DNA of 64,000 nt, taken from Escherichia coli (GTDB taxonomy: Bacteria > Pseudomonadota > Gammaproteobacteria > Enterobacterales > Enterobacteriaceae). Under the pieces are notes generated by a model. That model had not been told where the DNA came from and searched no databases. It saw only the letters and a list, made by a program, of their open reading frames with translations. Made by a program: the position numbers and the translations under genes. How positions within the stretch are numbered: the first letter of the stretch is position 1; the number at the start of each line of letters is the position of its first letter. Where the stretch lies: NCBI RefSeq assembly GCF_003334385.1, contig NZ_QOWN01000011.1. One strand, 5' to 3'. Positions 13,179 to 17,495 of the stretch are shown here, one piece after another.

Positions 13179-14729
13179 GTGAGAACACGACATCTGGTCG
13201 GCCTTATTTCGGGAGTACTGATTCTTTCAGTATTGCTGCCTGTCGGCTTAAGCATCTGGCTGGCCCATCAGCAGGTAGAAACATCGTTTATTGAAGAGCT
13301 GGATACCTATTCCTCCCGCGTCGCTATTCGAGCCAATAAGGTGGCGACACAAGGGAAAGATGCGCTGCAGGAGCTGGAAAGATGGCAAGGCGCTGCCTGT
13401 AGCGAAGCCCATCTCATGGAAATGCGTCGGGTATCTTACAGTTATCGCTATATTCAGGAAGTGGCTTATATCGATAACAACGTTCCCCAGTGTTCGTCTC
13501 TGGAGCATGAAAGTCCGCCCGATACCTTCCCCGAGCCAGGTAAAATTTCGAAAGATGGTTATCGTGTCTGGTTAACATCGCATAACGATTTAGGCATTAT
13601 CCGTTACATGGTCGCCATGGGAACGGCACATTATGTCGTCATGATCGACCCCGCTTCCTTTATTGATGTCATTCCCTATAGCTCATGGCAAATTGATGCC
13701 GCCATTATTGGCAATGCCCATAACGTTGTCATAACCAGCAGCGATGAAATTGCTCAGGGAATTATTACCAGGCTACAAAAAACACCCGGTGAGCATATCG
13801 AAAATAATGGAATCATTTACGATATCCTGCCCTTACCGGAGATGAATATTTCGATCATCACATGGGCTTCAACGAAAATGTTGCAGAAAGGCTGGCATCG
13901 GCAAGTCTTTATTTGGTTACCGCTCGGGTTGGTGATTGGCCTGCTGGCAGCGATGTTTGTGCTGCGTATTTTGCGCCGTATTCAGTCACCGCATCATCGG
14001 CTGCAGGATGCTATCGAAAATCGTGATATTTGCGTGCACTATCAGCCGATTGTCTCCTTAGCCAATGGCAAAATTGTCGGTGCTGAGGCACTGGCGCGCT
14101 GGCCGCAGACAGACGGTAGTTGGTTGTCACCAGATAGTTTTATTCCGCTGGCACAGCAAACGGGCCTTTCTGAGCCATTGACGCTACTGATTATAAGAAG
14201 CGTCTTTGAAGATATGGGCGACTGGCTGCGTCAGCATCCACAGCAGCATATTTCGATCAATCTTGAATCCCCCGTGCTCACCTCGGAAAAAATCCCGCAA
14301 TTGCTGCGTGACATGATCAATCACTATCAGGTTAATCCCAGACAGATCGCGCTTGAACTCACTGAACGCGAGTTTGCCGATCCGAAAACCAGCGCCCCGA
14401 TAATTTCTCGCTACCGGGAGGCGGGCCATGAAATTTATCTTGATGATTTTGGTACGGGGTATTCAAGTTTAAGTTATTTACAGGATCTGGATGTCGACAT
14501 TCTGAAGCTCGATAAATCTTTCGTTGATGCGCTGGAATATAAAAATGTCACGCCGCATATCATCGAAATGGCAAAAACACTGAAACTGAAAATGGTAGCG
14601 GAGGGAATCGAAACCAGTAAACAAGAAGAGTGGTTACGCCAGCATGGCGTGCACTACGGTCAGGGCTGGCTCTACAGCAAGGCATTACCGAAAGAAGATT
14701 TCTTACGCTGGGCCGAGCAACATTTGTGA
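13179..14729 (+). CDS. pdeB: cyclic-di-GMP phosphodiesterase PdeB (YlaB), CSS-domain plus EAL domain
   Basis: EAL-domain C-terminus (DDFGTGYSSLSYL, KLDKSFV); start placed at GTG 13179 (516 aa, good spacing from AAGGA), though ATG at 13173 is an alternative. Confidence 0.85.
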   Translation: MRTRHLVGLISGVLILSVLLPVGLSIWLAHQQVETSFIEELDTYSSRVAIRANKVATQGKDALQELERWQGAACSEAHLMEMRRVSYSYRYIQEVAYIDNNVPQCSSLEHESPPDTFPEPGKISKDGYRVWLTSHNDLGIIRYMVAMGTAHYVVMIDPASFIDVIPYSSWQIDAAIIGNAHNVVITSSDEIAQGIITRLQKTPGEHIENNGIIYDILPLPEMNISIITWASTKMLQKGWHRQVFIWLPLGLVIGLLAAMFVLRILRRIQSPHHRLQDAIENRDICVHYQPIVSLANGKIVGAEALARWPQTDGSWLSPDSFIPLAQQTGLSEPLTLLIIRSVFEDMGDWLRQHPQQHISINLESPVLTSEKIPQLLRDMINHYQVNPRQIALELTEREFADPKTSAPIISRYREAGHEIYLDDFGTGYSSLSYLQDLDVDILKLDKSFVDALEYKNVTPHIIEMAKTLKLKMVAEGIETSKQEEWLRQHGVHYGQGWLYSKALPKEDFLRWAEQHL

Positions 14730-14770
14730 ATTTTTGGGCTGACGGCACGCCGCACAGCCCGTCACGCTAC

Positions 14771-15124
14771 CTATTCGTCGATGATTGACTCGAATCCGCC
14801 ATAGATCATTCGCTTGCCGTCAAACGGCATGGACTCGCCGAACTCTTTCATCCGTGGGTCCGACATCATCTTTTGATTAGCAGCGTCGCGGACCTCTTTT
14901 GAAGGGTATTCAATCCAGCTAAAGACAACCTCTTCATTCTCTTCCGCTTTCACCGCCATACGAAAATCGGTCACTTTGCCATCCGGTACATCGCTGGCCC
15001 AGCATTCGACAATACGAAGCGCGCCAAACTCTTTAAACAATGGCGCAGCCTTAGCGGCCATTTCCCGATAGGCATCCTTTTTATCGGCAGGAACGGCAAC
15101 CACAAAACCATCAACATACTTCAT
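14771..15124 (-). CDS. ybaA: DUF1428 family protein YbaA
   Basis: 117-aa ORF MKYVDGFVVAVPADKKDAYREMAAKAAPLFKEFGALR...; matches E. coli YbaA. Confidence 0.92.
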   Translation of the reverse strand: MKYVDGFVVAVPADKKDAYREMAAKAAPLFKEFGALRIVECWASDVPDGKVTDFRMAVKAEENEEVVFSWIEYPSKEVRDAANQKMMSDPRMKEFGESMPFDGKRMIYGGFESIIDE

Positions 15125-15234
15125 CAGACATACCTCCGAAGCGTACTGCGCAGCCAGACAATTCTTGCGACGTCAGTTGTGGTTAAAGTTTAGCCATGTT
15201 GGGATTTTTTGACGAAACGGTGGGAGGCAGAAAT

Positions 15235-15348
15235 GGGTGGGGGCCCTGCCAGCTACATCCCGGCACACGCGTCATCTGCCTTGGCTGCTTCCTTCCGGAC
15301 CTGACCTGGTAAACAGAGTAGCGTTGCGGGAGAACCAACAGAGCCCCC
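15235..15348 (-). ncRNA. ffs: 4.5S RNA, the RNA component of the signal recognition particle
   Basis: Reverse complement of 15235-15348 reads GGGGGCUCUGUUGGUUCUCCCGCAACGCUACUCUGUUUACCAGGUCAGGUCCGGAAGGAAGCAGCCAAGGCAGAUGACGCGUGUGCCGGGAUGUAGCUGGCAGGGCCCCCACCC (114 nt), identical to E. coli 4.5S RNA as I recall it. Confidence 0.93.
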
Positions 15349-15424
15349 ATTGAGAGCGTTGAGAACCAACGCGCAGGCGCATTATCACTGCTGCCCCGGC
15401 TAATTGCAACCCATCGCGTGCCAG

Positions 15425-15814
15425 ATGCTGGTTTCTTGCGCAATGCGACTTCACTCGGGCGTTTTTCCAGATTATGCTGAAAAATTACCTCAGGAAGAAA
15501 AGATGGAAAAAGAAGATTCATTTCCCCAACGCGTCTGGCAAATCGTCGCCGCTATTCCCGAAGGCTATGTCACCACTTACGGTGATGTGGCGAAACTGGC
15601 GGGATCGCCCCGCGCCGCGCGCCAGGTGGGCGGTGTGTTAAAGCGTCTCCCTGAAGGCAGCACCTTACCCTGGCACCGGGTGGTTAATCGCCACGGCACA
15701 ATTTCGCTAACCGGACCGGATTTACAGCGTCAGCGACAGGCATTACTGGCAGAAGGTGTGATGGTATCGGGAAGCGGGCAAATCGACTTGCAGCGTTATC
15801 GCTGGAACTACTAA
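15425..15814 (+). CDS. atl: alkyltransferase-like DNA-damage sensor Atl (YbaZ)
   Basis: 129 aa from ATG at 15425; contains PWHRV where true O6-alkylguanine transferases have PCHRV. Confidence 0.9.
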   Translation: MLVSCAMRLHSGVFPDYAEKLPQEEKMEKEDSFPQRVWQIVAAIPEGYVTTYGDVAKLAGSPRAARQVGGVLKRLPEGSTLPWHRVVNRHGTISLTGPDLQRQRQALLAEGVMVSGSGQIDLQRYRWNY

Positions 15815-15844
15815 CCCTCTCCGGGCGGAGAGGGTTAACGTCGC

Positions 15845-16417
15845 TTAATATTGCGTAGGAGCTGGAACTGCCGAAGACGGATTCACCTGAGTTGGTGAAG
15901 TCGAAGGTACGGTAGTCGTTGCGCCACCGCTGGCCTGAACCGGCACGGCGGTTTGCTGTACCGGCACCAATGTCAGGTCGGCTTTAGTTCCGCCCTGGTT
16001 GATCACCGGCTGAACGGTATCGGTGATAAATACCAGTTTGTCATTCACGGTAATCGCCGCACTCAACAGAATACGCGCGTTCGGCTGAACATCTGCCGGG
16101 TTAAATGGCAGAACAAAGCTGAATGGTGACTGTTTACCTTCAGTACGCACCGCTTTCTGCGCCAGCACTTTTGACGGTGCATCGGCTAACGACGCGTCAG
16201 AAAGTGTCACGGTCAGCACAGCATCAGGCGGCAGTGCGACTTTCTGACGGATCCAGACGGTACCGGAGACATTCGGTTGCTGGATAGCTGGTTGTTGTGT
16301 TGCTGAAATAGACGTATTTGCAGCCGGTGCTGGCGTCTGAATATCCGCGCTTTTATCTGCGCAAGCCGCCAACGCAATCGCAACCGCTAAACCACTGGCC
16401 ATGTGCACGAGTTTCAT
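15845..16417 (-). CDS. ybaY: outer-membrane lipoprotein YbaY
   Basis: 190-aa ORF MKLVHMASGLAVAIALAAC (lipobox) ...; matches E. coli YbaY. Confidence 0.92.
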   Translation of the reverse strand: MKLVHMASGLAVAIALAACADKSADIQTPAPAANTSISATQQPAIQQPNVSGTVWIRQKVALPPDAVLTVTLSDASLADAPSKVLAQKAVRTEGKQSPFSFVLPFNPADVQPNARILLSAAITVNDKLVFITDTVQPVINQGGTKADLTLVPVQQTAVPVQASGGATTTVPSTSPTQVNPSSAVPAPTQY

Positions 16418-16634
16418 TCATTTCTCCTTATTATCAATGCACCAGCGGGCTAACTTTCCTCGCCGGAAGAGTGGTTAACAAAATAGTAACGTCAACAAGT
16501 GTGGCACACATCACGCATTTCTGCCTGTAATTAGCCCGTAATTCAGACCATTGCACCCATCGGACCAGTAGCAAATTTGCGTTATACTCAACTCACTTTG
16601 GCTTGCTGCGGCAGCTTTGTTACTGGAGAGTTAT

Positions 16635-17495
16635 ATGAGTCAGGCGCTAAAAAATTTACTGACATTGTTAAATCTGGAAAAAATTGAGGAAGGACTCTTT
16701 CGCGGCCAGAGTGAAGATTTAGGTTTACGCCAGGTGTTTGGCGGCCAGGTCGTGGGTCAGGCCTTGTATGCTGCAAAAGAGACCGTCCCTGAAGAGCGGC
16801 TGGTACATTCGTTTCACAGCTACTTTCTTCGCCCTGGCGATAGTAAGAAGCCGATTATTTATGATGTCGAAACGCTGCGTGACGGTAACAGCTTCAGCGC
16901 CCGCCGGGTTGCTGCTATTCAAAACGGCAAACCGATTTTTTATATGACTGCCTCTTTCCAGGCACCAGAAGCGGGTTTCGAACATCAAAAAACAATGCCG
17001 TCCGCGCCAGCGCCTGATGGCCTACCTTCGGAAACGCAAATCGCCCAATCGCTGGCGCACCTGCTGCCGCCAGTGCTGAAAGATAAATTCATCTGCGATC
17101 GTCCGCTGGAAGTCCGTCCGGTGGAGTTTCATAACCCACTGAAAGGTCACGTCGCAGAACCACATCGTCAGGTGTGGATCCGCGCAAATGGTAGCGTGCC
17201 GGATGACCTGCGCGTTCATCAGTATCTGCTCGGTTACGCTTCTGATCTTAACTTCCTGCCGGTAGCTCTACAGCCGCACGGCATCGGTTTTCTCGAACCG
17301 GGGATTCAGATTGCCACCATTGACCATTCCATGTGGTTCCATCGCCCGTTTAATTTGAATGAATGGCTGCTGTATAGCGTGGAGAGCACCTCGGCGTCCA
17401 GCGCACGTGGCTTTGTGCGCGGTGAGTTTTATACCCAAGACGGCGTACTGGTTGCCTCGACCGTTCAGGAAGGGGTGATGCGTAATCACAATTAA
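16635..17495 (+). CDS. tesB: acyl-CoA thioesterase II
   Basis: 286 aa from ATG at 16635 ([30 protein letters not shown]...); matches E. coli TesB. Confidence 0.95.

Follow-up and report, generated by a model that had tools for sequence, protein, structure and literature searches.

Escherichia coli Atl (YbaZ), an alkyltransferase-like protein with tryptophan in place of the acceptor cysteine and a probable start codon 26 codons inside its curated gene model

The closest described system is E. coli Atl itself (YbaZ, b0454; eATL in the literature), whose gene was recovered here without a sequence difference, including the PWHRV motif, R66, and Y52. The gene and this motif, in which tryptophan occupies the position of the alkyl-accepting cysteine of O6-alkylguanine alkyltransferases (AGTs), are textbook material, and the tryptophan in itself is nothing new. 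The description of E. coli Atl and PWHRV dates from 2005, and a role in enhancing nucleotide excision repair (NER) was reported in 2009; the primary work on this alkyltransferase-like (ATL) protein, as cited in a 2023 review (PMC10779285), is that of Pearson (2005), Mazon (2009), and Tubbs (2009). The same review reports that E. coli ATL lacks alkyltransferase, glycosylase, and endonuclease activity and that a W-to-C replacement in PWHRV yields no activity. The affinity of ATLs for O6-alkylguanine in DNA is nanomolar or better, and the E. coli protein directly contacts both UvrA (KD about 100 nM) and UvrC and travels along DNA jointly with UvrA (PMC10779285).

Two other ATLs with solved structures bracket the E. 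coli protein. Atl of Vibrio parahaemolyticus (2kif and 2kim), which aligned over E. coli residues 31 to 128 in the numbering of the curated 129-amino-acid protein, has the same single-domain architecture and shares the pocket tryptophan, the arginine finger, and an LPEGS-x-LPW loop. It differs in carrying PWFRV, with Phe for His, a variant also present in some enterobacterial relatives, such as that of Kluyvera. Atl1 of Schizosaccharomyces pombe (3gva, 3gx4, and 3gyh) has PWHRV, as E. coli Atl does, and its Tyr25, Arg39, and Trp56 correspond to Y52, R66, and W83 of E. coli Atl, or to Y26, R40, and W57 in a 103-amino-acid numbering, an offset of one. Atl1 is eukaryotic and has small C-terminal insertions, unlike E. 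coli Atl, and according to the literature works by the same mechanism, in which the lesion is bound, the base is flipped, and excision repair takes over (PMC10779285).

The other comparison is with proteins that do transfer alkyl groups. The DNA-binding domain of E. coli Ogt, of the C-terminal part of Ada, and of human AGT/MGMT is homologous to Atl, with 34% identity where aligned, and these proteins share with Atl the helix-turn-helix, the arginine finger, the tyrosine, and the P-x-HRV pocket. Atl departs from them in having Trp for the acceptor Cys, in having Leu75 where the NPISIVVPCHRV segment of Ogt has Asn, and in lacking the AGT N-terminal domain. Whereas Ogt, Ada, and MGMT are suicide repair proteins, Atl is a damage sensor.

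Identity of the gene and its surroundings

The window analyzed was a stretch of 64,000 nucleotides from contig NZ_QOWN01000011.1 of E. coli assembly GCF_003334385.1. Translation of 15425 to 15814 on the plus strand revealed 129 sense codons and a stop, in an open reading frame that mechanically reaches upstream to a TTG at 15404. This segment is base-for-base the K-12 ybaZ/atl coding sequence (b0454; NC_000913.3, 475982 to 476371), with the curated product name "DNA base-flipping protein," which bears out the initial annotation in naming the gene atl. Over the 1,001 bases from 15100 to 16100, identity with E. coli K-12 MG1655 and many other strains was 100%, and a match to this stretch was present in 5425 of 5426 complete E. 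coli genomes. The region almost certainly encodes E. coli Atl, an ATL consisting of a stand-alone AGT C-terminal DNA-binding domain and serving as a lesion sensor for NER; no observation made here spoke against this reading. In a comparison with MG1655 extended to 13796 to 17296, three single-base differences were found, at 14508 (pdeB), 16108 (ybaY), and 17024 (tesB). These differences, all outside atl, mark the strain in the window as K-12-like but not MG1655 itself.

Profile and structure searches agreed on a single domain. Residues 33 to 112 matched Pfam PF01035 (6-O-methylguanine DNA methyltransferase, DNA-binding domain) at an E value of 5e-27, covering model positions 2 to 81 of 81. The NCBIfam model TIGR00589 ("ogt") was passed with 53.2 bits against a cutoff of 46.4; the equivalog models for Ogt (NF007626, 44.3 bits against a cutoff of 192) and Ada (NF011964, 37.1 bits against a cutoff of 345) were failed, both matches being confined to the C-terminal part of the profile. 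The best solved relatives were V. parahaemolyticus Atl (2kif, E = 2e-28) and S. pombe Atl1 (3gva, E = 2e-17), and matches to true AGT structures were weaker, at E = 6e-10 or worse. At the level of sequence comparison, the two ATL matches settle the fold as that of an ATL. Alignments to solved structures start at Atl residue 30 or 31, and homology to AGTs begins at Atl residues 28 to 31, opposite AGT residues ~74 to 95, so that the AGT N-terminal domain is absent. Coordinates of the features discussed here and below are collected in Table 1.

Table 1. Features of the ffs-atl-ybaY interval (window coordinates; residue numbers refer to the 129-amino-acid model, with 103-amino-acid numbers in parentheses)
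Feature	Position	Strand	Basis
ffs, 4.5S SRP RNA	15244-15340	-	Rfam RF00169, 68 bits
ffs promoter: -35 TTGCAA (15409-15404), 17-nt spacer, -10 GATAAT (15386-15381)	15381-15409	-	Consensus scan
N-terminal extension of curated b0454 (26 codons), probably promoter DNA plus 5' untranslated leader	15425-15502	+	dN/dS, comparison of loci
TTCACT, candidate atl -35	15450-15455	+	Putative; paired with TATGCT
TATGCT, candidate atl -10 hexamer	15473-15478	+	Putative; conserved positions in 8 loci
AGGAAG, Shine-Dalgarno-like, ending 5 nt before ATG 15503	15492-15497	+	Read from sequence
Most probable atl (ybaZ) CDS, 103 aa plus stop, single AGT-C-terminal-like domain	15503-15814	+	PGAP, comparative evidence
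TAC codon, Tyr52 (Tyr26), base-flipping tyrosine (TTYGDVA)	15578-15580	+	Invariant in Atl/Ogt/Ada; opposite Atl1 Tyr25
CGC codon, Arg66 (Arg40), arginine finger of helix-turn-helix (PRAARQVG)	15620-15622	+	Invariant in Atl/Ogt/Ada; opposite Atl1 Arg39
TGG codon, Trp83 (Trp57), replacing the PCHRV acceptor Cys	15671-15673	+	Alignments to Ogt, Ada, M. tuberculosis OGT, and Atl1
Perfect GC-rich hairpin AACCCTCTCC-GGGC-GGAGAGGGTT	15814-15838	both	Folding, -23.2 kcal/mol on either strand

Upstream of atl lies ffs, transcribed divergently; downstream lies ybaY, in convergent orientation, followed by tesB and amtB. The order ffs-atl-ybaY-tesB-amtB is kept at seven other enterobacterial loci, from Salmonella, Citrobacter, Enterobacter, Raoultella, Klebsiella, and Kluyvera. 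On the side of ffs away from atl, gene content varies: ybaA and pdeB lie there in E. coli; in Salmonella, pdeB comes directly next, and ybaA is not called; Citrobacter, Raoultella, Kluyvera, Enterobacter, and Klebsiella carry a GntR/aminotransferase gene plus two small open reading frames that are unannotated. The atl-ybaY-tesB-amtB block remains constant in these six genera despite this variation.

The stop codons of atl and ybaY are 30 nt apart, and the gap holds the hairpin listed in Table 1, which is probably a bidirectional terminator shared by the two genes. The pair ybaY-ybaZ has been listed as a convergent transcript overlap ("excludon") in MG1655 (PMC12288877). Stop-codon variants of atl in some strains (P0003 and P0027) read through the hairpin, adding ...(Y/S)PSPGGEG.

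Start codon and the ffs-atl intergenic DNA

Two models of the protein are in circulation. NC_000913.3 annotates a 390-nt coding sequence (129 amino acids), and PGAP records of the same strain give 103 amino acids. In K-12 and other genomes, PGAP calls exactly the shorter coding sequence of Table 1 ("MGMT family protein," WP_000409911.1), and a probable N-terminal overextension of the curated model by 26 codons is already reflected in that annotation. The commonest annotated length among the 120 nearest relatives was 103 amino acids (47/120), with 129 amino acids in 22/120.

Comparative evidence makes it quite probable that the protein made in the cell is the 103-amino-acid form starting at ATG 15503. 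This ATG is invariant in eight enterobacterial loci, and all eight have AGGA or GGAG 5 to 11 nt upstream of its equivalent; in the 20 nt before 15425, no Shine-Dalgarno sequence was found. Pairwise comparisons of E. coli, Salmonella enterica, Salmonella bongori, and Citrobacter gave dN/dS values of 0.3 to 1.5 for the extension codons, versus 0.02 to 0.06 for the core, where third codon positions account for ~75% of the differences. For example, substitutions between E. coli and S. enterica at codon positions 1, 2, and 3 numbered 11/6/7 in the extension and 11/6/53 in the core. To judge from these ratios, the extension codons evolve neutrally, and the core is under strong purifying selection. 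No homologous in-frame start for the extension was found in Enterobacter, Raoultella, Klebsiella, or Kluyvera. Enterobacter hormaechei has a homologous ATG followed by a stop after seven codons, Kluyvera has CTG at the position of ATG 15425, the Raoultella locus carries an extra ~100 nt inserted in this region, and in Klebsiella quasipneumoniae the upstream sequence is unalignable and offers no in-frame start. The solved homologs, of 108 and 116 amino acids, begin at the equivalent of residue 30.

A physiological product of 129 amino acids initiated at ATG 15425, or production of both forms, is unlikely on this evidence, even though E. coli, S. enterica, S. bongori, and Citrobacter all keep the frame open from 15425 (and even from TTG 15404) to the core, with an ATG at the same place, and the longer model is used by NC_000913.3 and many database entries. 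In addition to the missing ribosome-binding sequence, the lack of third-position bias, the interrupted frames of other genera, the start of the solved homologs, and the PGAP call, the extension adjoins the divergent ffs promoter, and its first bases are conserved in a way that does not follow the code. The conserved sequence ATGCTGnnTTnTTGCGCA at 15425 to 15442, which precedes the ffs -35 element by about 15 nt, is variable at what would be the first and second positions of codons but constant at the third, a pattern that fits a DNA element and not coding sequence. The frame at 15425 to 15814 reported in the initial annotation equals the curated K-12 coding sequence, and the true start of the protein probably lies 78 nt further in, the one correction to that annotation.

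Apparent natural variants with a broken extension were not reliable enough to bear on the start codon. In one genome (GCA_013422875.1), the T5 run equivalent to 15462 to 15466 is short by 1 nt, which puts ATG 15425 out of frame and leaves 15503 intact; this variant was disregarded as a probable homopolymer error of the assembly, as the neighboring ybaA and ybaY calls are also of the wrong length. Paired frameshifts in A-runs at ~15480 to 15515 in the single-member metagenome clusters P0009, P0010, and P0018 likewise look like homopolymer errors. Within the accessible portions of the supplements to PMC4909307 (TetRP) and PMC5576327 (ribosome-signature starts), there was no entry for ybaZ, b0454, or atl.

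The DNA between ffs and the core of atl has features of its own. The ffs promoter was the only sigma-70-like site in a consensus scan of 15200 to 15900, with 9/12 matches where 0.3 such sites are expected by chance, and it is conserved across genera in the eight-locus alignment. The scan did not report TATGCT, the candidate atl -10 element, of which T1, A2, C5, and T6 are invariant in the same alignment. If the candidate -35 and -10 hexamers are used, atl transcription would start near 15485, inside the annotated extension. On the ffs side, position 475646 of U00096.2, which we take, on an assumed offset between genome versions, to be about window position 15372 to 15374, lies ~24 to 26 nt upstream of the mature ffs 5' end, and a transcription start there is consistent with a processed leader. 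In the part of the Cappable-seq data set drawn on here, a strong start site is given at this position on the (+) strand (PMC4782308), in agreement with the ffs promoter.

The ATGCTGnnTTnTTGCGCA sequence is part of a longer conserved stretch. A 22-nt element, AGATGCTGGTTTCTTGCGCAAT (15423 to 15446), with the palindrome TTGCGCAA inside it, shows conservation at the DNA level in 7 of the 8 aligned loci regardless of frame, and it remains beside ffs despite the Raoultella insertion. The element may be a regulatory site for ffs, atl, or both. Two more specific possibilities, of which one or the other is rated improbable but worth naming, are that a lineage-specific 129-amino-acid isoform with a fast-evolving tail is made alongside the 103-amino-acid core in E. 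coli, Salmonella, and Citrobacter or that 15423 to 15446 is an undescribed regulatory site common to the divergent ffs and atl promoters.

A published candidate for regulation of atl was rejected. ChIP-seq in Salmonella yielded a MarA/SoxS/RamA peak labeled "ybaZ," with the predicted motif GCCCTGCCAGCTACA (PMC10268841). This motif lies within the 3' part of ffs (15236 to 15262) and not in the atl promoter, and heavy transcription of ffs may account for the peak.

Tryptophan at the alkyl-acceptor position

Residues 78 to 91 read GSTLPWHRVVNRHG, and the presence of PWHR instead of PCHR, which had been claimed as legible directly from the sequence, is as described. In an alignment with Ogt and Ada (ogt and ada taken from NC_000913.3), W83 occupied the column of the PCHRV cysteine, and P82, H84, R85, V86, and E110 were invariant in all three proteins. 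HMMER alignments to solved structures placed W83 opposite the cysteine of Mycobacterium tuberculosis OGT (vpChrv versus lpWhrv) and opposite the tryptophans of S. pombe Atl1 (vpWhrv) and V. parahaemolyticus Atl (lpWfrv). The refuting outcome named in the initial annotation, an alignment that puts a cysteine of Atl at the active site, was looked for and did not occur, and conservation of the arginine finger, R66, was confirmed against both Ada/Ogt and ATL members.

The pattern extends to the 120 nearest relatives, taken as representatives of clusters at 90% identity. P-W-[H/Y/F]-R-V was present in 117/120, PRHRV was present in 2/120, and the motif was missing in 1/120; a cysteine at the motif position was sought in the same set and found in 0/120. 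The arginine-finger motif PRAARQV was present in 112 and the tyrosine motif T-Y-G-[DE]-[VI]-A in 116 of these representatives. ATLs are recognized by replacement of the PCHRV acceptor cysteine, usually by Trp and sometimes by Ala, and E. coli Atl combines this replacement with PF01035 homology, a single domain, and retention of the arginine finger and tyrosine. Features of AGTs (Ogt, Ada-C, and MGMT) that it lacks are the nucleophilic PCHRV cysteine, the two-domain architecture, and an equivalog-level score.

An active AGT with its acceptor cysteine elsewhere in the protein is therefore hardly conceivable. Atl is genuinely homologous to the C-terminal domains of AGTs and keeps His84, Arg85, and Glu110 from the catalytic neighborhood, but residues 27 to 129 contain no cysteine. 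The sole cysteine of the 129-amino-acid translation, C5, lies inside the doubtful N-terminal extension, which is nonconserved and probably untranslated. The absence of a motif cysteine from all 120 relatives and the published finding that the protein has no transferase activity and gains none upon W-to-C replacement (PMC10779285) point the same way.

A pseudogene, in which the Cys-to-Trp change inactivated a decaying ogt or ada duplicate and no function is left, would account for the loss of the catalytic residue and the entire AGT N-terminal domain and has a vanishingly small probability, given the third-position bias and low dN/dS of the core, the presence of the gene in all complete E. coli genomes but one, the same neighbors across at least seven other enterobacterial loci, and a tryptophan that is conserved in 117/120 relatives and recurs in fission yeast and Vibrio. 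The atl core showed neither neutral evolution nor frequent frameshifts and stops among natural isolates. Strong purifying selection together with constant neighbors rules out a decaying ogt paralog.

Lesion sensing and the numbering of residues

The view of Atl as a protein that performs no catalysis, binds lesions, and couples them to excision repair is that of the literature on this same protein, which also supports the proposal of the initial annotation that it is noncatalytic and flags lesions for NER (PMC10779285). Atl retains the helix-turn-helix and the residues R66 and Y52, by which the damaged base is flipped out of the DNA. With Trp83 instead of the acceptor cysteine and Leu75 where AGTs have the Asn of the "Asn hinge," it cannot transfer the alkyl group. 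Published experiments show it to bind O6-alkylguanine tightly, bend the DNA, and recruit UvrA and UvrC, so that NER removes the lesion, a function that is most important when the alkyl group is too bulky for Ogt and Ada. The binding loops of E. coli Atl and Atl1 may differ in detail, since Arg69 of Atl1, which contacts the flipped base, fell opposite Thr96 of E. coli Atl in an alignment that is uncertain in this loop.

The curated 129-amino-acid K-12 model probably carries 26 untranslated residues, and residue numbers (W83 and R66, for example) change with the model used. The choice of start codon matters for the design of expression constructs, for the numbering of mutants, and for how the ffs-atl intergenic region is read.
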